Shown: positions 1 through 42,893 of the stretch, piece after piece
Position numbering within the stretch: the first letter of the stretch is position 1
Layout of the letters: each line of letters opens with the position of its first letter
DNA from: Eledone cirrhosa
Taxonomy: Eukaryota
DNA: 64,000 nucleotides
Reading direction: 5' to 3'
Assembly (NCBI GenBank): GCA_964016885.1
Contig: OZ024742.1
Coordinates: forward strand, 24,614,001 to 24,678,000
The notes under the pieces: model-generated
The model's database searches: none
The model's input: only the letters and a program-made list of their open reading frames with translations
What the model was told of the DNA's origin: nothing
Translations under genes and position numbers: made by a program

Positions 1-3000
1 GTTAGACTGAAACTATGAGATGACTGCTGTGGATTGTGGCCTGTTGCTGTAAGACTGAAGCTATGAGATGACTGCTGTGGATTGTTGCCTGTTGCTGTAA
101 GGCGGAAGCTATGAGATGAATGCTGTGGATTGTGGCCTGTTGCTGTGTGGCTGAAGGTATGAGCTAACTGCTGTGGATTGTGGCCTGTTGCTGTAAGCCT
201 GAAGATATGAGATGATGGCTCTGGATTGTGGCCTGTTGCTGTAACGCTGAAGGTATGAGATGACTCTGTGGATTGTGGCCTGTTGCTGTGTGGCTGAAGG
301 TATGAGATGACTGCTGTGGATTGTGGCATGTTGCTGTGTGGCTAAAGGTATGAGATGACTGCTGTGGATTGTGGCCTGTTGCTGTAAGGCTGAAGGTATG
401 AGATGACTGCTGTGGATTGTGGATTGTTGTGAGGCTGAAGGTACGAGATGACTGCAGTGGATTGTGGCTTGTTGCTGTGAGGTTGAAGGTATGAGATGAC
501 TGAGATGACTGCTGTGGACTGTGGCCTGTTGCTGTAAGGCTGAAGGTAGGAGATGACTGCTGTGGATTGTGGCCTGTTGCTGTAAGACTGAAGCTATGAG
601 ATGACTGTTGTGGATTGTGGCCTGTTGCTGTAAGACTGAAGCTATGAGATGACTGCTGTGGATTGTTGCCTGTTGCTGTAAGGCGGAAGCTATGAGATGA
701 ATGCTGTGGATTGTGGCCTGTTGCTGTAAGGCTGAAGGTAGGAGATGACTGCTGTGGATTGTGTCCTGTTGCTGTGTGGCTGAAGGTATGAGCTAACTGC
801 TGTGGATTGTGGCCTGTTGCTGTAAGCCTGAAGATATGAGATGATGGCTCTGGATTGTGGCCTGTTGCTGTAACGCTGAAGGTATGAGATGACTCTGTGG
901 ATTGTGGCCTGTTGCTGTGTGGCTGAAGGTATGAGATGACTGCTGTGGATTGTGGCATGTTGCTGTGTGGCTAAAGGTATGAGATGACTGCTGTGGATTG
1001 TGGCCTGTTGCTGTAAGGCTGAAGGTATGAGATGACTGCTGTGGATTGTGGATTGTTGTGAGGCTGAAGGTACGAGATGACTGCAGTGGATTGTGGCTTG
1101 TTGCTGTGAGGTTGAAGGTATGAGATGACTGCTGTGGATTGTGGCCTGTTGCTGTAAGGCTGAAGGTATGAGATGACTGCTGTGGACTGTGGCCTGTTGC
1201 TGTAAGGCTGAAGGTAGGAGATGACTGCTGTGGATTGTGGCCTGTTGCTGTAAGACTGAAGCTATGAGATGACTGTTGTGGATTGTGGCCTGTTGCTGTA
1301 AGACTGAAGCTATGAGATGACTGCTGTGGATTGTTGCCTGTTGCTGTAAGGCGGAAGCTATGAGATGAATGCTGTGGATTGTGGCCTGTTGCTGTGTGGC
1401 TGAAGGTATGAGCTAACTGCTGTGGATTGTGGCCTGTTGCTGTAAGCCTGAAGATATGAGATGACGGCTCTGGATTGTGGCCTGTTGTTGTAAGGCTGAA
1501 GGTATGAGATGACTCTGTGGATTGTGCCCTGTTGCTGTGTGGCTGAAGTTATGAGATGACTGCTGTGGATTGTGGCCTGTTGCTGTAAGCCTGAAGATAT
1601 GAGATGACTCTGTGGATTGTGGCCTGTTGCTGTGTGGCTGAATGTATGAGATGACTGCTGTGGATTGTGGCATGTTGCTGTGTGGCTGAAGGTATGAGAT
1701 GACTGCTGTGGATTGTGGCCTGCTGCTGTAAGACTGAAGGTATGAGATGACTGCTGTGGATTGTGGCCTGCTGCTGTAAGGCTGAAGGTATGAGATGACT
1801 GCTGTGGATTGTGGCTTGTTGTTGTGAGGCTGAAGGTATGAGATGACTGCTGTGGATTGTGGCTTGTTGTCGTGAGGCTGAAGGTATGATATGACTGCTG
1901 TGGATTGTGGCCTGTTGCTGTAAGGCTGAAGGTATGAGATGACTGCTGTGGATTGTGGCCTGCTGCTGTAAGGCTGAAGGTATCAGATGACTGCTGTGGA
2001 TTGTGGCCTGCTGCTGTAAGGCTGAAGGTATGAGATGACTGCTGTGGATTGTGGCTTGTTGTTGTGAGGCTGAATGTATGAGATGACTGCTGTGGATTGT
2101 GGCCTGCTGCTGTAAGGCTGAAGGTATGAGATGACTGCTGTGGATTGTGGCCTGTTGCTGTAAGGCTGAATGTATAAGATGACCGCTGTGGATTGTGGCT
2201 TGTTGTTGTGAGGCTGAAGGTATGAGATGACTGCTGTGGATTGTGACCTGTTGCTGAGTGACTGAAGGTATGAGATGACTGCTGTGGATTGTGGCCTGTT
2301 GCTGAGTGAGTGAAGGTATGAGATGACTGCTGTGGATTGTGGCCTGTTGCTGAGTGAGTGAAGGTATGAGATGACTGCTGTGGATTGTGGCCTGTTGCTG
2401 TATGACTGAAGCTATGAGATGACTGCTCTGGAGTGTGGCCTGTTGCTGTAAGACTGAAGGTATGAGATGACTGCTGTGGATTGTGGCCTGTTGCTGTGTG
2501 GCTGAAGGTATGAGATGACTCTGTGGATTGTTGCCTGTTGCTGTGTGGCTGAAGGTATGAGATTACTGCTGTGGATTGTGGCATGTTGCTGTGTGGCTGA
2601 AGGTATGAGATTACTGCTGTGGATTGTGGCCTGTTGCTGAGTGAGTGAAGGTATGAGATGACTGCTGTGGATTGTGGCCTGTTGCTGAGTGAGTGAAGGT
2701 ATGAGATGACTGCTCTGGAGTGTGGCCTGTTGCTGTAAGACTGAAGGTATGAGATGACTGCTGTGGATTGTGGCCTGTTGCTGTGTGTCTGAAGGTATGA
2801 GATGACTGCTGTGGATTGTGGCCTGTTGCTGTAAGCCTGAAGATATGAGATGACTCTGTGGATTGTGGCCTGTTGCTGTGTGGCTGAATGTATGAGATGA
2901 CTGCTGTGGATTGTGGCATGTTGCTGTGTGGCTGAAGGTATGAGATGACTGCTGTGGATTGTGGCCTGCTGCTGTAAGACTGAAGGTATGAGATGACTGC

Positions 3001-5703
3001 TGTGGATTGTGGCCTGCTGCTGTAAGGCTGAAGATATGAGATGACTGCTGTGGATTGTGGCTTGTTGTTGTGAGGCTGAAGGTATGAGATGACTGCTGTG
3101 GATTGTGGCTTGTTGTCGTGAGGCTGAAGGTATGATATGACTACTGTGGATTGTGGCCTGTTGCTGTAAGGCTGAAGGTATGAGATGACTGCTGTGGATT
3201 GTGGCCTGCTGCTGTAAGGCTGAAGGTATGAGATGACTGCTGTGGATTGTGGCCTGCTGCTGTAAGGCTGAAGGTATGAGATGACTGCTGTGGATTGTGG
3301 CTTGTTGTTGTGAGGCTGAATGTATGAGATGACTGCTGTGGATTGTGGCCTGCTGCTGTAAGGCTGAAGGTATGAGATGACTGCTGTGGATTGTGGCCTG
3401 TTGCTGTAAGGCTGAATGTATAAGATGACCGCTGTGGATTGTGGCTTGTTGTTGTGAGGCTGAAGGTATGAGATGACTGGTGTGGATTGTGGCATGTTGC
3501 TATGTGGCTGAAGGTATGAGATGACTGCTGTGGATTGTGGCCTGTTGCTGAGTGACTGAAGGTATGAGATGACTGCTGTGGATTGTGGCCTGTTGCTGAG
3601 TGAGTGAAGGTATGAGATGACTGCTGTGGATTGTGGCCTGTTGCTGAGTGAGTGAAGGTATGAGATGACTGCTGTGGATTGTGGCATGTTGCTGTATGAC
3701 TGAAGCTATGAGATGACTGCTCTGGAGTGTGGCCTGTTGCTGTAAGACTGAAGGTATGAGATGACTGCTGTGGATTGTGGCCTGTTGCTGTGTGGCTGAA
3801 GGTATGAGATGACTCTGTGGATTGTTGCCTGTTGCTGTGTGGCTGAAGGTATGAGATTACTGCTGTGAATTGTGGCATGTTGCTGTGTGGCTGAAGGTAT
3901 GAGATTACTGCTGTGGCTTGTGGCCTGTTGCTGAGTGAGTGAAGGTATGAGATGACTGCTGTGGATTGTGGCCTGTTGCTGAGTGAGTGAAGGTATGAGA
4001 TGACTGCTCTGGAGTGTGGCCTGTTGCTGTAAGACTGAAGGTATGAGATGACTGCTGTGGATTGTGGCCTGTTGCTGTGTGGCTGAATGTATGAGATGAC
4101 TGCTGTTGATTGTGGCCTGTTGCTGTAAGCCTGAAGATATGAGATGACTCTGTGGATTGTGGCCTGTTGCTGTGTGGCTGAAGGTATGAGATGACTGCTG
4201 TGGATTGTGGCCTGCTGCTGTAAGACTGAAGGTATGAGATGACTGCTGTGGATTGTGGCCTGCTGCTGTAAGGCTGAAGGTATGAGATGACTGCTGTGGA
4301 TTGTGGCTTGTTGTTGTGAGGCTGAAGGTATGAGATGACTGCTGTGGATTGTGGCTTGTTGTCGTGAGGCTGAAGGTATGATATGACTGCTGTGGATTGT
4401 GGCCTGTTGCTGTAAGGCTGAAGGTATGAGATGACTGCTGTGGATTGTGGCCTGCTGCTGTAAGGCTGAAGGTATGAGATGACTGCTGTGGATTGTGGCC
4501 TGCTGCTGTAAGGCTGAAGGTATGAGATGACTGCTGTGGATTGTGGCTTGTTGTTGTGAGGCTGAATGTATGAGATGACTGCTGTGGATTGTGGCCTGCT
4601 GCTGTAAGGCTGAAGGTATGAGATGACTGCTGTGGATTGTGGCCTGTTGCTGTAAGGCTGAAGGTATAAGATGACCACTGTGGATTGTGGCTTGTTGTTG
4701 TGAGGCTGAAGGTATGAGATGACTGGTGTGGATTGTGGCATGTTGCTATGTGGCTGAAGGTATGAGATGACTGCTGTGGATTGTGGCCTGTTGCTGAGTG
4801 ACTGAAGGTATGAGATGACTGCTGTGGATTGTGGCCTGTTGCTGAGTGAGTGAAGGTATGAGATGACTGCTGTGGATTGTGGCCTGTTGCTGAGTGAGTG
4901 AAGGTATGAGATGACTGCTGTGGATTGTGGCCTGTTGCTGTATGACTGAAGCTATGAGATGACTGCTATGGAGTGTGGCCTGTTGCTGTAAGACTGAAGG
5001 TATGAGATGACTGCTGTGGATTGTGGCCTGTTGCTGTGTGGCTGAAGGTATGAGATGACTCTGTGGATTGTGGCCTGTTGCTGTGTGGCTGAAGGTATGA
5101 GATTACTGCTGTGGATTGTGGCATGTTGCTGTGTGGCTGAAGGTATGAGATTACTGCTGTGGATTGTGGCCTGTTGCTGAGTGAGTGAAGGTATGAGATG
5201 ACTGCTGTGGATTGTGGCCTGTTGCTGAGTGAGTGAAGGTATGAGATGACTGCTCTGGAGTGTGGCCTGTTGCTGTAAGACTGAAGGTATGAGATGACTG
5301 CTGTGGATTGTGGCCTGTTGCTGTGTGGCTGAAGGTATGAGATGACTCTGTGGATTGTGGCCTGTTGCTGTGTGGCTGAAGGTATGAGATTACTGCTGTG
5401 GATTGTGGCATGTTGCTGAGTGAGTGAAGGTATGAGATGACTGCTGTGGATTGTGGCCTGTTGCTGTATGACTGAAGCTATGAGATGACTGCTGTGGATT
5501 GTGGCCTGTTGCTGTAAGCCTGAAGATATGAGATGACGGCTCTGGATTGTGGCCTGTTGCTGTAAGGCTGAAGGTATGAGATGACTGCTGTGGATTGTGG
5601 CCTGTTGCTGTAAGACTGAAGGTTTCAGATGACTGCTGTTCATTGTGGCCTGCTGCTGTAAGGCTGAAGGTATGAGATGACTGCTGTGGATTGTGGCCTG
5701 TTG
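1..5703. repeat. 48-bp tandem satellite (~119 units, runs off left edge) with higher-order repeats
   Basis: Unit GCTGAAGGTATGAGATGACTGCTGTGGATTGTGGCCTGTTGCTGTAAG. Variant markers (GTCGTGAGG at ~1871/3117/4363; ATAAGATGACC at ~2181/3427/4673) recur every 1246 bp. Confidence 0.97.
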
Positions 5704-5743
5704 CTGCAAAGCATGGCGTCCGACCCTCTATCGATACTGCTAA
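5704..5743 (-). mobile_element. 5' head fragment of tRNA-derived SINE family 2
   Basis: Matches the head of the full copy at 63214-63400 (AAAGCATGGCGTCCGACCCTCTA.CGATACTGC). Confidence 0.75.
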
Positions 5744-6074
5744 TAATAATAGTGTGACATCACCTGTACAAACAGCAAGCCAGCAGCTAATTATATATTA
5801 CAGTGATTAGCAAGAAGACCCCTCAAATCATACTAATTAAAAAATTAATAACAATAATAGTAATAATGGTTCCTGATTTAGGTCAGCAATTTTTTTCTGG
5901 TGGGGGAAAGTCAATTAAATCAACCCAAGTAAGTTACTGGAACGTTATTTTATTGACCCTGTAAGTATGAAAGGCAAAACTAAACTCTGTGAAATTAATC
6001 ATCATCATCATCATTTCATTTTACGTCCGCTTTTTCCCTGCTTGCAAGGGTGTGACTATATAATAAAAATAATA

Positions 6075-17069: not shown

Positions 17070-17411
17070 TCATCATCATCATCATCATTTTACGTCCGCT
17101 TTTCCTTGCTTGCAAGGGTGGGACGGGAACTGTTTCCGGCTTGATTTCTACAGCTGGATGCCCTTCCTAACACCAACCTCATTTACAGTGAGTGCTGGGT
17201 GCTTTTTTGCCGTGGCATCTCCACGACCACTTTGCAGTGGAATGATAGGGACCTCAGTCCCTATCATCTCATTTCTACAGCTGAGTAAACTGGAGCAATG
17301 TGAAATAAAGTATCTTGCTCAAGGAAACAACACATCACCCGGTCTGAGAATTGAACTCACAACCTTTCGATTGCAAGGCCAATGCTCTAACCACTAAGCC
17401 ATGTGCCTCCA
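17070..17411 (-). mobile_element. tRNA-derived CORE-type SINE (family 1), full length
   Basis: A box TGGCTTAGTGG, B box GAGTTCAATTC, CORE-like CCTTGAGCAAGA.ACTT, RTE-derived 3' part and (TGA)n tail. Confidence 0.9.
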
Positions 17412-22089: not shown

Positions 22090-22255
22090 AATGAAGGCAC
22101 ATAGCTTAGTGGTTAGAGCATTGGGCTTGCAATCGAAAGGTTGTGAGTTCAATTCTCGGACTGGGTGATGTGTTGTTTCCTTGAGCAAGACACTTTATTT
22201 CACGTTGCTCCAGTTTACTCAGCTGTAGAAATGAGATGATAGGACTGGGTTCCCT
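22090..22255 (+). mobile_element. SINE family 1 head plus CORE, lacking the RTE tail
   Basis: Matches 36389-36555. More diverged copies at ~20730-20875 (-) and ~52825-52950 (+). Confidence 0.85.
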
Positions 22256-27762: not shown

Positions 27763-28111
27763 TCATCATCATTCATCATCATTTCATTTTACGTCCGCTT
27801 TTTCCCTGCTTGCAAGGGTGGAACGGGAACTGATTTTGGCTTGATTTCTACAGCTGGATGCCCTTCCTAACACCAACATCATTTACAGTGAGTGCTGGGT
27901 GCTTTTTTGCCATGGCGCCTGCACGACCACTTTGCAGTGGAATGATAGGGAACCCAGTCCCTATCATCTCATTTCTACAGCTGAGTAATCTGGAGCAATG
28001 TGAAATAAAGTGTCTTGCTCAAGGAAACAACACATCACCCGGTCTGAGAATTGAACTCACAACCTTTCGATTGCAAGGCCAATGCTCTAACCACTAAGCC
28101 ATGTGCCTCCA
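27763..28111 (-). mobile_element. CORE-type SINE family 1, full length
   Basis: Near-identical to 17070-17411. An internally deleted copy lies at 28862-29052. Confidence 0.9.
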
Positions 28112-29951: not shown

Positions 29952-29955
<4 letters not shown>

Positions 29956-30640
29956 CTTTAATGCGACGAAATGCCTACGACGGTTGGAAGGCCACTGATG
30001 AAGGACAAACTTTTTCATATGTAACCCATTTGCAGCGCCGCAGCTCCATTATTATCATATTTACACATATATTTTTTCCTCCGCTGCCACCAGTCTATTT
30101 CGTTCTTTGTGTCTTTACCCTTTCTAGCAGTCTCTCTCTCTCTGTTAGCCTCTTCCTCACCTTTCACCCACTCACTCTCTGTCACTACCTCTCTTCCTCC
30201 CCTTTCTTCCCGTTTGACCTGTCCGTAATCCTTTTCTCGCGGGCACTTGGCCAAGCCGGTATGAATTTATTTTCTCTCTCTCTCGTCTGCGACTTCACAG
30301 AACTTATGTTTACCGAATTCGCAGACCAGACCCCTTCTTCCTCCCGTTAGACCTGTGCGAAATTCCTTGCTTGCTCACATTTCAACCAGGTTTGATGATC
30401 TTTATTCTCTCGTTCACGATTCCACCGAATTTATATTCATAGAAATCTGGGACTTGTTTCTTTCTTCATCACTTTCTGCTGCTTAAACCATTTTGTTTGT
30501 TTACCCTAGCACTCCCTTTATTTACGTGTCCCAACGACTTTTTTTAGCCGTTGCTCGCACCAACCTGAGGTATATGGCCTTTAATGCGATGAAATGCCTA
30601 CGACGGTTGGAAGGCCACTGATGAGGACAAACTTTTTCAT
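29952..30640 (+). mobile_element. Non-coding terminally redundant element (623-nt unit plus ~67-nt direct repeat), retrozyme-like
   Basis: 29952-30020 is repeated at 30575-30642. Flanked by (TA)n. The repeat contains GAAA and CUGAUGA. Confidence 0.7.
30555..30630 (+). ncRNA. Candidate non-circularly permuted hammerhead ribozyme
   Basis: AGGUAU-A-UGGCCUU...GAA-AUGCCU...AAGGCCA-CUGAUGA. Stems I and III covary with the homolog at 38155-38230. Stem II is not evident. Confidence 0.55.
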
Positions 30641-31488
30641 ATATATATATATATATCTCTCATCATCGTTTTACGTCCGTTCTTCCAATATATATATATA
30701 ATGCGTATATGTACACACACAAACACACACACATATATGTAAATAGATAGATAAATATAGACACACACACTTATCACAATAAAAATGATTATATCTTGTG
30801 GAAAATAAAAAATGAGAACAAAATATTCTTTTCTGTCATATATAAATTATATATTAATAAATATGCAGCAGAATACTTAAAATTGTGTGATAAATACATT
30901 TCTCTGTGTCAGTTAATAATCAACTCTCTTTTTCTATTTTGTTTTTAAAAATATATCTGTCTATCTCAATTATAATTTCATCAACCTTAAATAACAGAGA
31001 ATCTAAGAAAATATATAATGAACAAAACATTTGATTTTGTATGGTGATGATATTAACCTGCCTGCAACCACACCTGGCTTAGATAAAAACCTTTTTTAAT
31101 CTGTAGTTATATAAAATTATGAAGGAATGTTTTAATTTAGATATGAAATTTTAGTTGTCACAACCAGCAGCTAACATTTTGAATTAATTAATGAAGAATT
31201 TGAAGGGATTTGCAAAAATTGTTTCATTATAACATTTGTAAGATAAAAACATATTCTTAGATAAATTATTTTGGGAGGTTTTGATTTAAATAGGTAGTTT
31301 TTGTTTCATAGTGGCAAAGGTAGGTTTGAGCAGGTTTATATGAAAAGGGTTAAGGGACCAATACTTGGGTCCAATTGTATTACATTCAATGGACATGGGG
31401 TAGATTAATGTCCTATTGAGCAGGAAAGGAGTAGGGTGTTGTGTCGGGTGACAGGCTGAAAAAAGTGTATCAATAAAACACCTGTAAC

Positions 31489-31803
31489 CAGGATTGGACC
31501 TTTAGACCTTGGGCAACCTAGGGCAATTCAGATTTTTTGGGGGGGGTTGTTATACACAAAAATAAGAATATACAGCAAACCCCCCAATTTTACATATCAA
31601 AGTTAGCTGGGTACAAGTAATTGGATTTGAAAAGTTATACATGCAGATATTAAATTAAAAAATTCTAACCGTCCTAAAACTAAAAAGCTGAGGGCACAAA
31701 TACATTGCTACGGCCATTGCTGATACCACCACCACTCCCACCACCACCAATGCAGGGGGCCCAGGGAAGTAGCTCCCTTTGGTTCCTATTAAAAGCGACA
31801 CTG
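31489..31803. mobile_element. hAT-type MITE
   Basis: Perfect 8-bp TSD CCTGTAAC (31481-31488, 31804-31811); CAG...CTG ends. Confidence 0.75.
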
Positions 31804-33545
31804 CCTGTAACAGATTTGAAATTGAGGCCTTTGATTCAATAATCCAATATGATTTTGACATTACTTGTGTTGGTGTTGTTGTTCTTCTCTACCCACTTAT
31901 TTCTGAGAAAGATTTGGGGACAGAGACATCACACATGCCTATTGATGTTGTCCAACTTGTTTTTTTAACATTAAAATTCATTTTTTAAACATAGTCCCTG
32001 GAAAGAAACAATGCAATTATAATAGGAACAGTTGAAATTAATGCATGCAAGATTTCACAGCTCTAGCATCACCTCTTTAAATTCAGCACACCCTTGTGGT
32101 GACACCTACATGACTACTTTACAGTGTGGGCTGAATGCTGTTTTATTGTGATACCAACATAACTTTACAGTGTAAGGGTGGTGCACACAGACGTGGGTGG
32201 TTGGGTCATGGCAGATGTATGGAAGGGGGTATAGTGGTTAAGAGGTGCCTACTAGATGTATGTTTGATTCCATGCACATCATCAATAATAATTGATCTCA
32301 TTGATACTCTAAATCTATCATATTTACTGTAAATCAGAGCAACTTCTCATGTAATAAATATATCAGATAAGCATAGTCATTTAGACATATTTATCTTATA
32401 AACTTGCAAAATCTCATATTTCTTATTTAGGTGACATTGGAAATTAAATTCTATTAATGTTGAAAATGTTCTACAACATATTAACCCAATTATCTATTAG
32501 TCTCCCTACTAAATTATTGTGTGTGTAGTATGTTGTGTGTGTCACGTATGTGTGCATGTGTCATATGTGTATGTGTTAATGTATGTATGTTGTGTAATAT
32601 GTGTGTTGTGTGTGTGGGCAGTATATGTATGTGTGTATGTGTTATTATGGACAAATAGTAGCAAACTTAGTTGATATATGTTGCAGAAATTATTTGAGCG
32701 TGTAGTATCATCATCATCATCATCTCCGTTTACCTATGACTCACTTTTCCTCCACTATCCTCTTCTTACTTCCACCTTCTCCATCTCCCTAGTCTTTGTT
32801 TCTCTCTCACCCCAGTACCCTCTCCCTCCTACTCTACCCTCCACCCATGTTTTTTTGCCTCTTCTTTAAACCACCTCATGTCCGTTTCTCAATCGTACCA
32901 CTAGTCTCCCCTGTCATTTCTACACCCTCTCCCCACACTCAGCCCTCCACCATGCCTCAAACATTGAACTAATATATTTTTTTGATGCACTGTGCAATAA
33001 AATGCAATTAAATAAAGATGTCTATACCTTACTAATGTATTGAGTACCTTTCTTAACTGTGGTCACTGCTTGGTATACATTGGGAATCCATCCATAATAT
33101 ATACAAATATAAAATATATATATATATATATGTGTTTGTTTGTGTGTGTATATATAAGTATATATATATATATATTTAATACAATAACAGAGATAGTTTA
33201 AAGCTAAACTCTGACTGGTATCCATCTCACTCAACAAACATTAGGTTATTTTTAAATATAAACCCAATTTAAGTGTTTGGGGTGCTAACAATATGTATAA
33301 TGTGGAAAAACCAGTTGTATTATTTTATGAGATATAATTAAAGTTAAAATACATCTCTCTTTCCAAACAATTGTTTCATTATAAGTTTTCTACAAGTTGG
33401 GAGAATATTTTCAGTTTATGTAGAAGCCTAATATATATTCATATAAGAATATATTTAGGTGGGCGCTTATAAATCATCAGTGGAAGCCCATTAAACTTTG
33501 ATATAAGAAAGACATTCTTACCGCAGTCAAAAATCGTGTTTGTTA

Positions 33546-33646
33546 AGTTGCTCCTTCTCGCATCAAATGACCGCCAAATTTGAAATTCCAGCAGTTCTTG
33601 ACTGAGGAAGTATCATAGCGATACGAAGCGGGAAGGGGAGACAACT
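33546..33646 (+). ncRNA. Candidate type III hammerhead fold with a non-canonical G15.1-C16.1 pair
   Basis: Stem III CUCCUUCUCGC/GCGGGAAGGGG, stem I UCAA/UUGA, CUGAGGA 33602-33608, stem II GUAUC/GAUAC, GAAG 33625-33628. Confidence 0.55.
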
Positions 33647-33973
33647 ACGATCCACGAAAGGAGGAATAAAATAATAATATACACGCGGGTTAATTAGTTT
33701 TTTCGAAAACATTATCAACCCAACGTGTTAAGAACTCAATTGAAAATAAAAAAAATAAATATATGCGTGTATAAATTACACACGCATATAGATATTTTCT
33801 TAGGCTAAAATCAGAAGTTGTACCCGAATAAGAACCGCATCTCATAACCGCAGTAAGTACAGAAAGTCATGCTTTAAAGGGCAAATGGGAATGTAAATCT
33901 CCGGCCGAATTAAGAGTAAAATAGTTATATATATATAAATATATATGATATATATATATATATATATATATAT

Positions 33974-36040
33974 ATGACTTGGTGGTGGAACAATAAGGTA
34001 GATGAAGCAGTCAAGGCCAAGAGACAGGCATGGAAAGAATGGAAGAACGGGGGGAGCAGGGTACATTACATAGAGACCAAGAGGGAAGCTAGGCGACAAG
34101 TATACTTAGCTAGGAGGGAAGCAGAGGATAGAAAATTCAAGCATGTTTTACAACGTGAGGACCAGAAACAGGAGGTATTCAAGGTTGCGAGGCAGTGTGT
34201 CAGAGATAGTTGTGATGTCATTGGAGAGAAGTGTATCCGGAATGATAAAGGTGAGCTTGCCCTCACAAGTGCTGAGAAGAAAGATGCATGGAAGAGTCAT
34301 TATGCATGGAAGAGTCATTATGCATGGGAAGAAGAGACCCTACCCCAGGTAGACCCTATAGAGGGACCAGCAGTACAAGTCAGCGGCAGCGTAGTAAGTA
34401 AGGCAATCAGAGATATGAAGATGGGGAAGGCAACCAGTCCATCGGGTATAGCTGCCGAGATGCTGAAGGCATCTGGGTCTGTAGGTCACACTATAACCAC
34501 ACGTATCGTTAACCAGGTAATACTAGAAGGGGCCATACCAAAAGATTGGTGCAGTAGCATCATTGTCAACTGCTACAAAGGTAAAGGCGATGCACTAGAT
34601 AGAGGAAACTATAGAGGTATAAAGTTGATGGACCAGGTCATGAAAGTAACAGAAAGAGTTATAGCACAGCTGATTAGGGACCGGGTGAATATAGACGAGA
34701 TGCAATTTGGGTTTGTACCAGGGAGAGGCACCACTGATGCCCTCTTCCTTGTGAGGCAATTACAGGAAAAGTACCTAGCTAAAAGTAAGCCACTCTACTT
34801 GGCATTTGTCGACCTTGAGAAAGCCTTTGACAGAGTTCCACGTGCAGTAATCTGGTGGGCTCTTAGAAAACTAGGAGTAGATGAATGGCTTGTGAAAGCG
34901 GTACAAGCCATGTATAGGGGAGCAGTCAGCAAAGTTAGGATTAGCAATGAGTATAGCGAGGAATTTAGCGTACAGGATGGGGTCCACCAGGGCTCTGTTC
35001 TTAGCCCTCTCCTGTTCATCATAGTCCTGCAGGCAATAACGGAGGAGTTTAAGACCGAATGCCCATGGGAACTCCTGTATGCTGATGACCTCGCACTCAT
35101 AGCTGAATCTATGGTAGAACTAGAGAATAAATTCCAAACCTGGAAGCAGGGACTAGAGAGAAAGGGCCTCAAAGTCAACATGACAAAGACTAAGGTCCTT
35201 GTAAGTAGACGAGAAAACAGAACCCAGATCCCCTCAGGGAAATGGCCTTGCTCAGTATGTAGGAAAGGTGTAGGTAGGAACTCCATTCTCTGCCCCAAAT
35301 GCAAACAATGGGTACACAAGAGATGTAGCGGGATCTCAGGAAGCTTAATTAAGAATGTAGGATTCACATGCAGCAGCTGTGCTGAAACAGCAAGCAAACA
35401 GCCACAGGAAACAAGTACCACCAATCTCTGGGAGGGCCCTGTAGAAAGAGTAAACAGCTTCTGCTACCTAGGTGACCGAATTAGCAACGGAGGTGGGTGC
35501 TCAGAAAGTACAATAACTAGGGTAAGAACGGGATGGAAGAAGTTTAGGGAACTACTACCACTGCTAGCTGCAAAAGGCTTCTCCCTCAGAATGAAAGGCA
35601 GACTGTATGATGCGTGTATCCGAACAGCGATGTTGCATGGTAGTGAGACCTGGGCGCTGAAGGTGGAAGACTTACGTAGATTAGAGAGAAACGAAGCCTG
35701 CATGCTCCGATGGATGTGTAACAGTAATATACGTGAACGACAAAGCATAAAGGAATTGAGAGAGAGACTGAGCATAAGAGGAATCAAATGCTGCGTGCAG
35801 GAGAGGCGGTTACGCTGGTATGGACATGTGATGCGTATGAAGGATGACAGCTGCATAAAAAGGTGCAGAGCACTAGAAGTTGATGGAAACCGCGGAGTGG
35901 GGAGACCCAAGATGACTTGGGATGAGGTGATAAAAGCCGACCTTACCCAACTACACCTCTCAAAGACAATGGCACACGACCGTGACTTCTGGCGTCACGC
36001 AGTAATACAGGGTACCCGACCTCCCATGGGTACATGCTGA
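33974..36040 (+). CDS. Truncated RTE reverse transcriptase with PHD-like finger (688 aa open; the ATG is formed at the junction)
   Basis: NYRGIKL, QFGF, FVDLEKAFD, HQGSVLSP, YADD, C4HC3, FCYLG, HGSETW. Confidence 0.85.
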   Translation: MTWWWNNKVDEAVKAKRQAWKEWKNGGSRVHYIETKREARRQVYLARREAEDRKFKHVLQREDQKQEVFKVARQCVRDSCDVIGEKCIRNDKGELALTSAEKKDAWKSHYAWKSHYAWEEETLPQVDPIEGPAVQVSGSVVSKAIRDMKMGKATSPSGIAAEMLKASGSVGHTITTRIVNQVILEGAIPKDWCSSIIVNCYKGKGDALDRGNYRGIKLMDQVMKVTERVIAQLIRDRVNIDEMQFGFVPGRGTTDALFLVRQLQEKYLAKSKPLYLAFVDLEKAFDRVPRAVIWWALRKLGVDEWLVKAVQAMYRGAVSKVRISNEYSEEFSVQDGVHQGSVLSPLLFIIVLQAITEEFKTECPWELLYADDLALIAESMVELENKFQTWKQGLERKGLKVNMTKTKVLVSRRENRTQIPSGKWPCSVCRKGVGRNSILCPKCKQWVHKRCSGISGSLIKNVGFTCSSCAETASKQPQETSTTNLWEGPVERVNSFCYLGDRISNGGGCSESTITRVRTGWKKFRELLPLLAAKGFSLRMKGRLYDACIRTAMLHGSETWALKVEDLRRLERNEACMLRWMCNSNIRERQSIKELRERLSIRGIKCCVQERRLRWYGHVMRMKDDSCIKRCRALEVDGNRGVGRPKMTWDEVIKADLTQLHLSKTMAHDRDFWRHAVIQGTRPPMGTC

Positions 36041-36338
36041 AGCATATAAACAATATGCCCCCACTCCCCCCACCGCAAGGTGGTCGTGGAGGTGCCACGG
36101 CAAAAAAGCACCCAGCCCACACTGTAAAGTGGACGTGTAGGCGCCACGAAAAAGCACCCAGCACTCACTGTAAATGAGGTTGGTGTTAGGAAGGGCATCC
36201 AGCTGTAGAAATCAAGCCAGATCAGTTCCTGTATGAGCAAGGCATGGTCAGCCAACCAGACACTGCCCACAACAGGACAACCCGTCTAACCCATGCTAGC
36301 GTGGAAGAACGGACGTAAAACGGTGATGATGATGATGA

Positions 36339-36342
<4 letters not shown>
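33974..36342 (+). mobile_element. RTE-clade LINE family B, 5'-truncated
   Basis: Starts directly after (TA)n; RT ORF; distinct 3' UTR; (GAT)n tail followed by (TA)n. Confidence 0.95.
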
Positions 36343-36388
<46 letters not shown>

Positions 36389-36390
<2 letters not shown>

Positions 36391-36728
36391 AGGCGTATGG
36401 CTTAGTGGTTAGAGCATTGGCCTTGCAATCGAAAGGTTGTGAGTTCAATTCTCAGACCAGGTGATGTGTTGTTTCCTTGAGCAAGACACTTTATTTCACA
36501 TTGCTCAGGTTTACTCAGCTGTAGAAATGAGATGAGAAGGACTGGGTTCCCTATCATTCCACTGCAAAGTGGACGTGTAGGCGCCACGGCAAAAACGCAC
36601 CCAGCACTCACTGTAAATGAGGTTGGTGTTAGGAAGGGTATCCAGCTGTAGAAATCAACCCAGAATCAATTCCCGTCCCACCCTTGCAAGCAGGGAAAAA
36701 GTGGACGTAAAGTGAAATGCTGAAATGA

Positions 36729-36731
<3 letters not shown>
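36389..36731 (+). mobile_element. CORE-type SINE family 1, full length
   Basis: A box 36398-36408, B box 36441-36451, CORE-like 36475-36491, RTE-derived tail; (TA)n on both sides. Confidence 0.92.
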
Positions 36732-36763
<32 letters not shown>

Positions 36764-36771
36764 AACAAACA

Positions 36772-37206
36772 TTATATTTAAGTAACAGCCGTACTAAGAG
36801 TTTATCGTTTATCGTTTTCGGTACCCCGGCCGATTAACTCACTCGATATGCAAATTGGGCTGCTCAGCCGTTAATATGCATAAGGAAAGTATATACTTTC
36901 AGACATTCAACCATCTGGCAGGAAGGTATACGTTGCTAATAAGCTTGAAACTAGTACAGCGTTCCTTTGTCAGTGTTGAACAAATGGGCAACAATGGTTG
37001 CTAGACACTGTACAGCTTAATTCGGTATGTTTGTTTACAAACACACCGAACATTATAATAAATGTTCGGTGAATCCATACGTACATATAAATGTGTGTGC
37101 ATGTATGTATATATATATATATATATATGCATACTACTGTACGTCTGTATACATATATGTATGTACGTGTACATACTTATATTTAAGTAACAGCCATACT
37201 AAGAGT
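36772..37206 (+). other. Terminally redundant non-coding unit (405 nt plus 30-nt repeat) with a degenerate HHR-like motif
   Basis: TTATATTTAAGTAACAGCC.TACTAAGAGT at 36772 and 37177. ACGUUG-CUAAUAA-GCUU-GAAA-CUAG-UA-CAGCGU at 36930-36962. Confidence 0.45.
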
Positions 37207-37247
37207 GTTTCATTTTTTCCGTTTATATATATATACATATATATACA

Positions 37248-37307
<60 letters not shown>

Positions 37308-37465
37308 ATATAATATATACTTATATATAAGACACTTTATTCCACGTTGCTCCTTCTACCTGGAGTTGCGACTGATAGATAGTACTAGCAATTGGAAAGA
37401 CCAATGGAAACATTGTTTCCTCAGTCCGATTTGACGAAAAGTCGATCGTTCCTTATATATATATA

Positions 37466-37902
37466 TATATTGTTATACTTTGGGAGGGTCATGTTGCCAA
37501 TAAGAAACACACGCACCAGTTGCTTTCACTTCAATTTATTATAATAAATTCATAAATTTAGGAATTTATAAATTTCCGGTTGGTTGGTTGGTTCCACAAC
37601 CAGATGGTTGTTTATATATTGTCAAAGTTCTTTCGTCACACATTCTGTGACCTCTTCAGTGACTGGGATTCTTTTCTTTGTTTTTGTGCCTCTCTTTCTT
37701 TGTTTTTGTGTCACTGAAGAGGTCACAGAATGTGTGACGAAAAAACTTTGACAATATATAAACAACCATCTGGTTGTGGAACCAACCAACCGGAAATTTA
37801 TAAATTCCTAAATTTATAAATTTATTATAATAAATTGAAGTGAAATCAACTGGTGCGTGTGTTTCTTATTGGCAACATGACCCTCCCAAAGTATAACAAT
37901 AT
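37466..37902. repeat. Long fold-back inverted repeat carrying two HHR copies
   Basis: Arms ~37466-37663 and 37710-37902 (~195 bp, few mismatches); 46-bp pyrimidine-rich spacer. Confidence 0.92.
37709..37753 (+). ncRNA. Minimal type I hammerhead (mirror copy on - strand at 37620-37663)
   Basis: UGUCA-CUGAAGA-G-GUCAC(loop)GUGAC-GAAA-[G/A]AAC-UU-UGACA. Confidence 0.75.
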
Positions 37903-37970
37903 CGGTTTCAACACACGTTTTCAGATAAAGAATATTGCTAAACAAATTTAGAAATATATATATATATATA

Positions 37971-38284
37971 ACACCGGATTCACTAGCGAAAGTTTTGTTT
38001 TCTGACTCGCTCATATATTCACACAGCTTATGCTAAAAGAATAACTATGTTGCTTGTGTTTATTTCCATCTTCGGTTAGCTTCCCCCTGTGTTGTTTACT
38101 TGTCTCACTCGCTTTACGCGTTTCTATTGTCCTAATAACTTACTTTAGTTATTATCGCTCCAACGTGAGGTATATGATTTTTAATGCGATGAAATACCCA
38201 TGATCGTTTGGTAAATCACTGATGAGGGACTCATTTTATAACATGTTATCCATGTGCAACCAGCAGTATTCTTCTCACCCATAT

Positions 38285-38290
<6 letters not shown>
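37971..38290 (+). mobile_element. Diverged homolog of the 29952-30640 element with a permuted-HHR candidate (38155-38230)
   Basis: TGAGGTATATG.....TTAATGCGATGAAAT.CC....CACTGATGAGG is shared, and homology extends on both sides. Flanked by (TA)n. Confidence 0.7.
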
Positions 38291-38801: not shown

Positions 38802-41800
38802 AGGAATTCACTTCGCCAAATTTCATTGCTTGCTGTGTACCCTCGATATACATGTATACGTAATGTACGGATTTCATTTCTCTCCCTCCACAAATCTTAA
38901 TTCTAGCGTATTTTCAAAACAATCCATATTTCGTATCAAGTCCAAATAGCCAATCTATCGCTAAAACAAACTACATTTTCTGTTTCTATTAATTGTTAAA
39001 TACGAAAGTTTTTGGGCGTATTTAACAGAACAAATTTTGTATTTTTGTTAATCGCTTGTTAAATGCAAGGACCCCATTCAATCATTACCTTCTTGCTAGC
39101 TACAATATCCCTCCCTCTCACCCCCACGCACCACCATGGCTATTACGTGGACCAATCATAAAACAGAGCCCCCACGCATCACCAGTATTATTACGCGGAC
39201 CAATCAGAAACCAGAGGCCTATACTATCGCTTGCCTGGTTGCCTTTCGATATATGATGGATGGATGGACTGCGGAATCCTGGAGAGTGGAGGTGAGAGAG
39301 AGAAAAATCTGGACGCTCAGCGACAATGCCAAAGATAAAGACAAATTCACCTCTTGGACGAGAATGCGAGCACTCCTCATTGTTTCGACCGCGGACGGCT
39401 AACATAACCCCATCGCCCCCCGCCCCCACCGCCCCCAACCCCCAAACGCAATCCAAAACTTCAGAGTTGGTACCATAAATGTAGGCACCCTAAAGGGTCG
39501 CGCTAACGAGGTTGTAGAAATGCTTGAACGTAAGGAGGTCGATGTTTGTTGTATTCAAGAGACCAGGTGGAGGGGTGGGTCTGCTAGGTTCATTGAGGGT
39601 AAAAAACGATGTTATAAGCTTTTCTGGGTGGGAAACGACGATGGGCTGGGTGGAGTAGGAATCATGGTAGCAGAAAAGTGGGCAGATAAGATAATAGACG
39701 TAAATAGAGTGAACGACAGAATAATTAAAATACGACTTGTCCTCAATAGAACTACGGTGACAGTAATATCTGCGTACGCACCCCAATCCGGACTGCCCGG
39801 CACTATAAAAGACAGATTCTATGAGACACTGATGCTAACTACCTCCCAAATATCCGACAGTGACTATATAATTATCGCAGGCGACCTAAATGGTCACGTT
39901 GGACAACATTGTGACGGCTACGACGAAATCCATGGAGGCTATGGGTTTGGTACTAGAAATGAGGAAGGCTCCAGAATCCTGGAATTCTGTGATGCAAATA
40001 ACCTAACTATCTGTAACACTAACTTCAAAAAACGTGACAATCACCTGATCACCTATAGATCCGGGGAACACACAAGCCAGGTAGATTATATCCTTACCAG
40101 AAGACGTGACAGAGTGTCTGTTGTAAACACTAAATCCCTCCCCCATGAAGAATGCACCTCCCAACATAGACTGATAATTAGCGACCTCATAGTCAGGACG
40201 AGACGTACTCGACAACAGAAGAGGACTATCCTCAGGAGGAAAATATGGAAGCTAAAGGACCCCACAGCCAGGAATAAATTTCAAAGCATATTTCTTGATG
40301 CTTTCGACAGTAAGGAAGAACATTTAGAGTCGGACAATATAGAGGGAGAGTGGGAATTTCTGAAAGCAAACCTGCTGTTGGCGACAGACGAAGTCTGTGG
40401 CTGGAGCAGGCCTGTAGGCAGGAGGAGAGTAACATGGTGGTGGAACAGTAAGGTGGAGGGGTCAATTAAGGCCAAAAAGCAGGCTTGGAAAGTATGGCGG
40501 GATGGGGGAAGTAGAGAGGACTATCAAGTGGCCAGGAGGGAAGCTAGGAGACAAGTGTACTTAGCAAGAAGGGGAGCTGAGGAAAGAAAGTTCAAGCATG
40601 TTCTACAACGCGATGACCAAAAACGTGAGGTGTTCAGGATTGCTAGGCAATGCGTCAAGGAAAACCGTGATATTGTCGGGGAGAAGTGTGTACTAAACGA
40701 CGATGGCACACTTGCCATCACCGACGCTGATAAGAAGGTAGCTTGGAAGTGTCACTATGAAAGGCTACTAAATGAGGAGAATAATTGGGAGAAAGGCAGT
40801 CTCCCCCATATCGACCCAATAGAGGGACCAGCAGTGTTAGTCGAGGGGAGTATAATAAGTAAGGCAATCAAGGATATGAAGACGGGTAAGGCGGCTGGGC
40901 CTTCGGAAATAGTTGCTGAGATGCTGAAGGCATCTGGCACGGTGGGACACACCATGGTCACCCGCATAGTTAACCAAGTCGTACAGAATGGGGTTGTTCC
41001 GAAGGACTGGCATAGCAGCATCATCGTTAACTGTTATAAGGGTAAAGGAGACGCCCTAGATAGGAGTAACTATAGAGGCATTAAATTAATCGACCAGGTC
41101 ATGAAGGTCACGGAAAAAGTAATAGCGCAACTAATCAGAGAGAGAATTGACCTAGATGAAATGCAGTTCGGGTTTGTGTCAGGCAAAAGTACCACAGACG
41201 CTCTTTTCATAGTACGACAACTACAGGAGAAGTACCTAGCTAAAGGTAAACCCCTCTACTTAGCTTTTGTCGACTTGGAGAAAGCCTTCGACAGAGTCCC
41301 CCGCTCCATTATCTGGTGGGCTCTTAGAAAACTAGGCGTTGACGAATGGCTTGTGAGGGCTATACAAGCCATGTATAAAGAAACAGTCAGCAAGGTTAGA
41401 ATTAACAACGAATATAGTGAAGAGTTTAGCGTAAAAGTTGGCGTCCATCAGGGCTCTGTTCTCAGCCCACTACTATTTATTATTGCCCTTCAGGCTATAA
41501 CAGAGGAGCTCAAGACAGGCTGCCCATGGGAACTCCTATACGCAGACGACCTGACACTCATAGCGGAATCAATGGCCGAGCTAGAGAAGAAATTCCAAAC
41601 ATGGAAGCACGGCCTAGAGTCAAAAGGACTTAAAATTAACCTGGCTAAGACCAAAGTACTAGTTTGTAGGAAAGAAAACAAGGCGGCGGTCCCTTCTGGG
41701 AAATGGTCGTGCTCGGTGTGTAGGAAAGGCGTAGGTAGAAACTCCATTTTATGTCCTAAATGCAAAGTATGGGTGCATAAAAGATGTAGTGGGATCACAG

Positions 41801-42893
41801 GTAAGCTAACTAAGAACATAGATTTTACATGTGGCCGGTGCTCTGGTGCAATAAGTAGCAGCAAGTGCCCACAAACTACTAGCTCTTTCAATTGCGCAGA
41901 GGGTTCTATAGAAATAGTGGACAGCTTCCGTTACCTGGGCGATAAAATCAGCAGTGGGGGAGGGTGCTCTGAAAGTACTGTAGCTAGAGTCAGAACTGGT
42001 TGGAAAAAGTTCAGAGAGCTTATACCACTATTAGCTGCTAAAGGGTTCTCACTAAAAATGAAAGGCAGGTTGTACGATGCCTGCATACGAACAGCAATGC
42101 TGCATGGCAGTGAGACCTGGGCATTGTGTGCAGAGGATATACGCAGACTAGAGAGGAACGAAGCTTGCATGCTCCGCTGGATGTGTAACAGTAATATACG
42201 TGAACGGCAAAGCATAAACGAACTAAGGAAAAAATTAGAGATAAGAGGGATCAGATGTTGTTTACTCGAGAGAAGGCTACGTTGGTATGGACACGTGATG
42301 CGCATGAAAGTCGATAGCTGTATAACAAAGTGCAGGGCAATAAAGATAGACGGTAGTCACGGAATAGGCAGACCTAGAAAAACCTGGGACGAGCTGATAA
42401 ACTCCGACATCACACACTTACACCTCTCCAAGACAATGTCACTGGACCGAGACCTTTGGCGGTACTCAGTAACAGAGAAGACCCGCCTTACCTAAATATA
42501 TAGTAAAACCTACTCCAGCCAGTAGGCATCTCTAACAAAATACACCCCGTCCCACCACCCCCACCCCCACCCCATCCACACCACCCTGTTCTATGTAAAG
42601 TTATGTTGGTGCCGCGCCATCGAGGCCGAAACAAATGAGATCGTGTAGGTGTCACGACAAAAAAACACACAGTCCACGCTGTAATGTGGCCGTGTAGGCA
42701 ACACGGTAAAAACCTCCCAGACCCACACTGTAAATGTGGTTGGTGTTAGGAAGGGCATCCAACTGTAGAAAACCTGCCAGACAGTCCTATGCGAGCAAGA
42801 CAATCACTCTTGCCTCAAGTGGGACTACCCCCGTCCAAACCCATGCAAGCGTGGAACACGGACGTTAAACGTTGATGATGATGATGATGATGA
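38798..42893 (+). mobile_element. RTE-clade LINE family A, near full length
   Basis: Leader, single long EN-RT ORF, 3' UTR and (GAT)n tail; (TA)n on both sides. Confidence 0.96.
39520..42495 (+). CDS. APE-type endonuclease / reverse transcriptase with internal PHD-like finger (991 aa)
   Basis: CIQETRW, ISAYAP, GDLNGHVG, VDYIL, SQHRL (EN); FVDLEKAFD, YADD at 41539-41550, FRYLG (RT). The probable true start ATG at 39326 is out of frame by 1 nt. Confidence 0.95.
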   Translation: MLERKEVDVCCIQETRWRGGSARFIEGKKRCYKLFWVGNDDGLGGVGIMVAEKWADKIIDVNRVNDRIIKIRLVLNRTTVTVISAYAPQSGLPGTIKDRFYETLMLTTSQISDSDYIIIAGDLNGHVGQHCDGYDEIHGGYGFGTRNEEGSRILEFCDANNLTICNTNFKKRDNHLITYRSGEHTSQVDYILTRRRDRVSVVNTKSLPHEECTSQHRLIISDLIVRTRRTRQQKRTILRRKIWKLKDPTARNKFQSIFLDAFDSKEEHLESDNIEGEWEFLKANLLLATDEVCGWSRPVGRRRVTWWWNSKVEGSIKAKKQAWKVWRDGGSREDYQVARREARRQVYLARRGAEERKFKHVLQRDDQKREVFRIARQCVKENRDIVGEKCVLNDDGTLAITDADKKVAWKCHYERLLNEENNWEKGSLPHIDPIEGPAVLVEGSIISKAIKDMKTGKAAGPSEIVAEMLKASGTVGHTMVTRIVNQVVQNGVVPKDWHSSIIVNCYKGKGDALDRSNYRGIKLIDQVMKVTEKVIAQLIRERIDLDEMQFGFVSGKSTTDALFIVRQLQEKYLAKGKPLYLAFVDLEKAFDRVPRSIIWWALRKLGVDEWLVRAIQAMYKETVSKVRINNEYSEEFSVKVGVHQGSVLSPLLFIIALQAITEELKTGCPWELLYADDLTLIAESMAELEKKFQTWKHGLESKGLKINLAKTKVLVCRKENKAAVPSGKWSCSVCRKGVGRNSILCPKCKVWVHKRCSGITGKLTKNIDFTCGRCSGAISSSKCPQTTSSFNCAEGSIEIVDSFRYLGDKISSGGGCSESTVARVRTGWKKFRELIPLLAAKGFSLKMKGRLYDACIRTAMLHGSETWALCAEDIRRLERNEACMLRWMCNSNIRERQSINELRKKLEIRGIRCCLLERRLRWYGHVMRMKVDSCITKCRAIKIDGSHGIGRPRKTWDELINSDITHLHLSKTMSLDRDLWRYSVTEKTRLT

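Follow-up and report, generated by a model that had tools for sequence, protein, structure and literature searches.

A likely self-cleaving hammerhead in S-G-C order at the 3′ end of Penelope-like repeats of Eledone cirrhosa

Hammerheads of types I, II and III share the circular block order C-G-S, and a core encountered in another order raises two questions: whether it can be a ribozyme, and what kind of element carries it. Both arise at a locus within a 64,000-nt stretch of the Eledone cirrhosa genome (NCBI GenBank assembly GCA_964016885.1, contig OZ024742.1, positions 24,614,001 to 24,678,000 of the forward strand), the whole of which is referred to below as the window. A sequence-only reading had reported three copies of a motif in which the 5′ strand of stem III is followed by stem I, with the GAAA half of the core enclosed in the stem I loop and the CUGAUGA half placed last. 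All three copies were found where it had placed them, and the strands were confirmed to follow the order S-G-C. We consider the motif likely to be a self-cleaving, caged S-G-C hammerhead at the 3′ end of non-autonomous Penelope-like repeats, which are likely derived from, or mobilized by, the Penelope-like elements known as Naiads.

Architecture, covariation and core constraint

The places reported earlier were right, but the motif extends ∼27 nt further in the 5′ direction, where it has a hairpin and a strand pairing immediately past the core (Table 1). The strands of the first half are, in order, helix C 5′, hairpin H, stem II 5′, brace B 5′ and stem III 5′, up to the cut. The cut is followed by stem I 5′, a 3-nt linker, stem II 3′, G12-A15.1, stem III 3′, brace B 3′, stem I 3′, C3-A9 and helix C 3′. 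None of the three core-block links is left open, and the strand ends of the RNA fall within block C. The cut sites proposed earlier, after A30574 and A38174, coincide with the position 17 predicted by this strand assignment.

Table 1. Coordinates (window numbering) of the motif copies, their parts and the host repeats.
Feature	Coordinates	Strand	Remarks	Pairs changing on both sides
Family A non-coding Penelope-like insertion	29952..30640	+	one 623-nt unit between successive cut sites, with terminal 3′ half of motif; (TA)n on both flanks	
Copy 1, 3′ half of motif only	29952..30006	+	spans stem I 5′ through helix C 3′ strand; 47 bits; starts at predicted cut	
Copy 2, motif	30528..30629	+		
Copy 2, helix C 5′ strand	30528..30531	+	pairs with 30625-30628, directly after core	
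Copy 2, hairpin H	30532..30553	+	8 bp, one mismatch, 6-nt loop	3/8
Copy 2, stem II 5′ strand (helix A)	30555..30559	+	pairs with 30585-30589, just before G12	3/5
Copy 2, brace helix B 5′ strand	30560..30565	+	pairs with 30605-30610	5/6
Copy 2, predicted kink-turn, non-bulged strand	30566..30568	+	opposite 30599-30604 (3-nt bulge, tandem G.A pairs)	
Copy 2, stem III 5′ strand and position 17	30569..30574	+	30569-30573 pairs with 30594-30598; predicted cut after 30574	3/5
Copy 2, stem I 5′ strand	30575..30581	+	pairs with 30611-30617	6/7
Copy 2, invariant 3-nt linker	30582..30584	+	directly after stem I 5′ strand	
Copy 2, position 11.1 and core G12-A15.1	30590..30594	+	11.1 at 30590; core at 30591-30594	
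Copy 2, core C3-A9	30618..30624	+		
Family B 5′-truncated copy	37969..38290	+	between (TA)n runs; ends with 63-nt tail class	
Copy 3, complete motif	38129..38230	+	127 bits; helix C 38129-38132/38227-38230; hairpin 38133-38154	
Copy 3, inner parts		+	stem II 5′ 38155-38158; brace 38160-38165; stem III 5′ 38169-38173	
Copy 3, core		+	position 17 at 38174; G12 at 38191; core 38219-38225	

Among the young copies (12 aligned, 9 of 35 pairs changing on both sides) helices A and C were invariant, and older families were therefore sought. The covariation set comprised 17 copies from 11 families and covered the 23 pairs of stems I, II (helix A) and III and brace B; hairpin H and helix C were excluded because the alignment is out of register for them, and the hairpin H value in Table 1 comes from the 12 young copies. 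In this set 17 of the 23 pairs change on both sides, paired cells amount to 92% compared to 34–46% in slid controls, and none of 500 shuffles reached the covariation score, a count that is not a probability. The sequence of helix C differs between young and old families while its pairing is kept. The covariation of stems I and III that had been noticed in the window thus extends to copies aligned genome-wide, and stem II covaries as well (Table 1).

Two further pairings had been suspected of excluding each other in a monomer. They need not do so: both covary, one being stem II and the other the brace helix. For stem III, the covariation held but its length did not, since it has 5 bp and the sixth, A-U pair is not kept across families, forming instead part of a predicted kink-turn. 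A kink-turn has two stems separated by a 3-nt bulge, after which come tandem G.A and A.G pairs. In the segment linking stem III to brace B, G.A is present in the majority sequence of all 12 families and A.G in that of 10 (A.U in families H and I), and the sequence of the 3-nt bulge varies freely between families. By these rules the junction is predicted to be a kink-turn.

The motif is abundant. In the 3.0-Gb assembly its pattern matched 10,751 times, while the reversed pattern gave no match; a further 1,551 copies carry another base at position 7 and 281 belong to older families (control, 0), so that the genome holds at least 12,500 copies. Within the window a two-word pattern matched twice, and 100 shuffles gave 0.06 matches on average. 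A high copy number is in itself a product of transposition, and the word order might have arisen by chance in a repeat-rich genome and been amplified by copying. We regard this as very improbable, as it is refuted by the compensatory changes between families in four crossing helices, and the same layout was seen by eye in unrelated Naiad sequences from three phyla, in the available part of a published consensus file (discussed below).

The patterns behind the counts of 10,751 and 281 demanded the core words, so that core invariance in those copies is there by construction. Variants in the same frame were therefore compared. Changes at G5 (n = 91) and G12 (n = 144) are of mixed kinds and scattered over families, as expected of decay after insertion, whereas 98 of the first 100 listed N7 variants (n = 1,551) are a single change within amplified subfamilies. 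G5 and G12 variants thus correspond to ∼1%, and N7 variants to ∼14%, of the ∼10,751 intact copies, the latter number being taken from a looser pattern. C3-A9 and G12-A14 are conserved and N7 is free. All 12 family majorities have A or C, and none G, at position 17, and 16 of 17 rows combine an A15.1-U16.1 pair with a position 17 other than G. In hammerhead chemistry G5 and G12 are catalytic, N7 is tolerant and position 17 is not G; the changes tolerated and forbidden here, as read from the aligned copies, appear to follow it.

The predicted stem II junction and the known hammerhead classes

Stem II had been described as at most one G-Y pair. At most one pair does come from the 3′ strand, but the stem continues as a helix of 4–6 bp whose 5′ strand is supplied from upstream. 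A purine able to pair with position 11.1 follows A9 in 12 of 12 families, with an additional purine at this place in copy 1, and an upstream purine can form the same pair directly in six families and over a 1-nt bulge in six. The base after A9 is the favored register in families C, E, F, G and K and the upstream strand in H and I, while families A, B, D and J, which include the window copies, accept both. We infer that helix C, hairpin H, stem II and the core form a four-way junction that may slide by one pair, position 10.1 being taken from either the base after A9 or the upstream strand. Stem III would be bent back by the kink-turn into the brace, which would in turn hold stems I and II together at their distal ends. 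Fast cleavage is known for a hammerhead in which stem II has 1 bp and a pseudoknot is present.

An alternative is that block C is intact and the core an ordinary one of the published type SGC, in which 10.1 is always the base after A9, stem II amounts to a single pair that stacks on helix A, and helix C and hairpin H lend support from the periphery. We consider this unlikely, although it deserves weight: the purine after A9 is present in every family, families C, E, F, G and K have fewer mismatches in that register, family A forms a canonical G-C pair there, and hammerheads with a one-pair stem II are active. In families H and I, however, no base separates A9 from helix C, and 11.1 pairs with the upstream strand without an unpaired base. 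The Naiad tails point the same way by eye, in the part of the consensus file covered: the base after A9 cannot pair with C11.1, and the upstream G can.

The S-G-C order sets the motif apart from types I, II and III, as the sequence-only reading had stated. The 150 best-scoring of the 243 Rfam matches in the window included no hammerhead, and none matched at the gathering score in six loci. That reading had also mentioned rare permutations reported in nature; a published comparison exists, and the order already has a name, type SGC (Eckert et al., 2023, PMC10085705; HRIMA-1 and variants). Comparisons with published work, here and below, refer to the available portions of the cited papers. Type-SGC hammerheads share with the motif the block order and full core, the 3-nt linker between stems I and II, and a helix joining the other sides of these stems. 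They differ in that their stem II 5′ and brace strands lie 3′ of the core, whereas here these strands are at the 5′ end and all three block links are closed; in addition, type SGC has an uninterrupted block C, in which the core is followed at once by the stem II 5′ strand, where the present motif has a junction of helix and hairpin. Eckert et al. assumed that the core blocks could not be interrupted, and the portion of their supplement covered mentions neither a kink-turn nor a four-way junction (PMC10085705). Type SGC is known from metatranscriptomes, with none in genomes of known organisms according to the same portions of the paper, compared to more than 12,500 copies in an animal genome here. 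Type-SGC ribozymes cleave in vitro, and the brace helix is required in a monomeric one (PMC10085705).

Type-CSG hammerheads, of which two examples are known, from metagenomes, have the same cyclic block order (PMC10085705). Closing helix C with a loop would give the order CSG with an insertion after A9; the open point of type CSG lies between blocks G and C, and that of the motif inside block C. A metagenome scan with the young-family pattern gave no match. Literature searches found no published report of a motif with this wiring (subscription journals lay outside their coverage). Judged by the alignments, we regard the motif as real: a strongly covarying hammerhead-type core in a wiring that we did not find in print.

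The previous suggestion of a pseudoknotted or dimeric RNA stands in its first part, as the crossing helices covary, but a dimer is not required. In a dimeric or trans-assembled hammerhead, the helices would form between two RNAs or neighboring tandem units, as in minimal Penelope hammerheads. The tandem arrangement of the units, a fold not recovered by nested folding and the earlier concern over crossing helices are compatible with such an assembly. It is nevertheless improbable, since a palindromic loop is absent, the helices are all local and of 4–7 bp, many terminal copies hold one complete motif, and related SGC RNAs were treated as cis-cleaving, which stem rescue confirmed (PMC10085705).

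Host repeats and a proposed mechanism

Copies 1 and 2 are not independent loci but mark either end of a single 623-nt unit (family A), while copy 3 belongs to a family with a 533-nt unit (family B). Tandem units are spaced by 620–628 nt in family A (11 tandem pairs) and by 530–540 nt in family B. The units code for no recognizable protein, and the only long frame of the family A unit has no Pfam match; as in retrozymes, non-coding tandem units carry one motif each. The repeats are young (96–99% alike) and the repeat family is present in two contig sets of unspecified kind. In blastn, families A and B align over ∼100 nt at the motif (76–77%) and up to ∼100 nt downstream, with the rest of the unit unaligned. 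The first 60 loci displayed fixed 3′ ends, ragged 5′ ends, partial tandems, 5′ inverted copies and insertion into (TA)n. In the 128 copies parsed, the (TA)n run begins mostly 14–16 nt or 54–65 nt past the core.

Two further observations were made on these repeats. Arrays of nine and five tandem units of ∼680–800 nt, each with the motif, occur at G000:C1:43918170-43924212 and C1:25329110-25331877, respectively. Directly upstream of the family B copy (window 37467-37902) lies a near-palindromic element of ∼435 bp with long inverted arms, relatives of which adjoin several other loci.

The copies end past the core and not at the cut, so that their template must have been uncut RNA or a circle. A possible course of events is that read-through transcripts of tandem units would be cut by the motif into unit-length monomers, and that helices C, A, B and III (∼20 bp) would then clamp the two ends of the monomer, favoring their rejoining to a circle. 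A Penelope-type reverse transcriptase (RT) would start 14–16 nt (or ∼55–63 nt) past the core and run round the circle. Fixed 3′ ends, partial tandems and ragged 5′ ends would all follow if copying began at a set point and went round the circle, and a circle-copying model has been proposed for retrozymes.

The fixed 3′ ends 14–16 nt past the core, the lack of 5′-end enrichment at the cut (see below) and the predicted kink-turn would also suit a non-catalytic recognition element, bound by a Penelope RT/endonuclease or a kink-turn-binding protein to start reverse transcription, with catalysis lost or incidental. Such an element would not predict the hammerhead-like pattern of constraint, in which G5 and G12 are fixed, N7 and position 17 vary, and position 17 is never G; we judge it improbable.

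Animal non-LTR (long terminal repeat) retrozymes likewise consist of non-coding tandem units with one hammerhead each, and are proposed to be cut to monomers, circularized and copied by Penelope RTs (Cervera and de la Peña, 2020, PMC7229834; bioRxiv 10.64898/2026.07.22.740005). They carry type I hammerheads, to which the motif does not belong, and were found with type I descriptors, which are blind to it. Circular RNA has been demonstrated for retrozymes (same sources), whereas circles of the present repeats are only a prediction.

Relation to Naiads and implications

Insertion into (TA)n targets, partial tandems, 5′ inverted copies and a 3′ tail are shared by the present repeats and Naiads (Craig et al., 2021, PMC8557442). 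A Naiad is further defined by an open reading frame (ORF) encoding an N-terminal GIY-YIG domain and an RT, which the non-coding units lack. Naiads are said, in the portions covered, to be without canonical hammerheads, and 8 of 54 were flagged 'HHR_half_core', with the other half 35–50 nt away (PMC8557442). When the Naiad section of the consensus file was examined by eye, 7 of its 19 listed core-word places displayed the layout of the motif: the tails of Naiad_Obim, Ovul, Amil, Aacu, Anas and EuTe and one Morbakka element placed by its position in the file (PMC8557442). In these seven tails a G-C pair at 10.1-11.1 has its G supplied from upstream. The Naiad_Bfor tail may share the layout, two nematode tails show the core ahead of the second half, and the other places do not resemble the motif. 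The sequences of the Naiad tails differ from the motif except in the core and at the ends of the hairpin loop.

Naiad ORFs in the E. cirrhosa genome are decayed, in contrast to the young non-coding repeats. Naiad RT patterns gave no exact match and two matches with mismatches in the genome, a motif pattern of the Octopus-Naiad type gave one match, attributed to chance, and no ORF was found ahead of the older motif copies. At locus L039, the neighboring Penelope RT was dismissed as a mobilizing partner because it has a C-terminal endonuclease and, by eye, its own canonical-order hammerhead-like hairpin. The element itself (L039:1-960 and 1690-3111) is Penelope-like, with a C-terminal GIY-YIG and a decayed canonical-order hammerhead-like hairpin, and has one (TA)n run in common with a family B copy. 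Separately, the Naiad RT query had weak matches (28–29%) in open frames of 323–493 aa at G000:C1:312729233, C1:282359101, C1:94704421, C2:139683231 and C15:40010926. These five are possibly intact Penelope-type RTs and candidate mobilizing partners.

A number of results weigh against a self-cleaving motif of Naiad ancestry or mobilization. The copies are related, so that shuffle counts overstate significance, and most compensatory changes are concentrated on a few branches. The contrast in core constraint rests on one tolerant position, N7. Nested folding gives nothing out of the ordinary (z about −1), and a competing nested helix of ∼14 bp can form in family A (window 30540-30613) between the hairpin 3′ strand and the brace and stem I 3′ strands, possibly an off state. 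Among (TA)n-joined 5′ ends, 19 of the first 100 of 581 places lie at the cut (hand count; four more have broken runs), but 18 of the first 100 lie at a microhomology site 11 nt downstream of it, and 33 of the first 100 of 511 at 9 nt downstream (hand counts). All three sites share letters with the (TA)n run, and beyond this microhomology the cut shows no excess of 5′ ends; for this reason the start of copy 1 at the predicted cut is weak evidence. As to Naiads, the strong ones among 151 Naiad-like RT matches scored in the genome are all broken, and no motif was found within ∼1.5 kb of 44 Naiad-like RT loci. The Naiad_Ppla tail lacks such a motif by eye. The comparison with the available part of the Naiad file was made by eye with one core spelling, and line breaks there may hide matches.

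Even so, we retain a self-cleaving S-G-C hammerhead in Naiad-related repeats as the likely explanation. A bolder proposal, which we advance tentatively and hold to fall somewhat short of an even chance, is that the caged permuted hammerhead, with a sliding four-way junction as its A9-10.1 link and stem III kinked into the brace, is the hidden active ribozyme of many Naiads and of a large Naiad-borne class of retrozymes that circularize themselves by means of their clamped ends.

Elsewhere in the window, an open 1,030-aa frame of a non-LTR retrotransposon with endonuclease, RT and PHD-finger matches occupies 39403-42492 (+), and a partial relative of it, 73% alike, lies at 33920-36037. Positions 1-6000 contain an extended tandem repeat that is strongly G-skewed and whose minus strand has long frames free of stop codons. 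Four tRNA-like heads near the Rfam threshold (17344-17401, 22100-22163, 28044-28101 and 36398-36455) are probably short interspersed elements.

Non-circular hammerhead permutations have so far come from metatranscriptomic RNAs and metagenomes only, and the motif would be the first high-copy example in an animal. If correct, the proposed junction would break the assumption of the discoverers that core blocks are uninterruptible. The existence of the motif would imply that type I descriptors overlook a class of retrozymes. It also offers a testable answer to the question of why Naiads, which are dominant in many invertebrate genomes, seem to be without the hammerhead carried by other Penelope-like elements.

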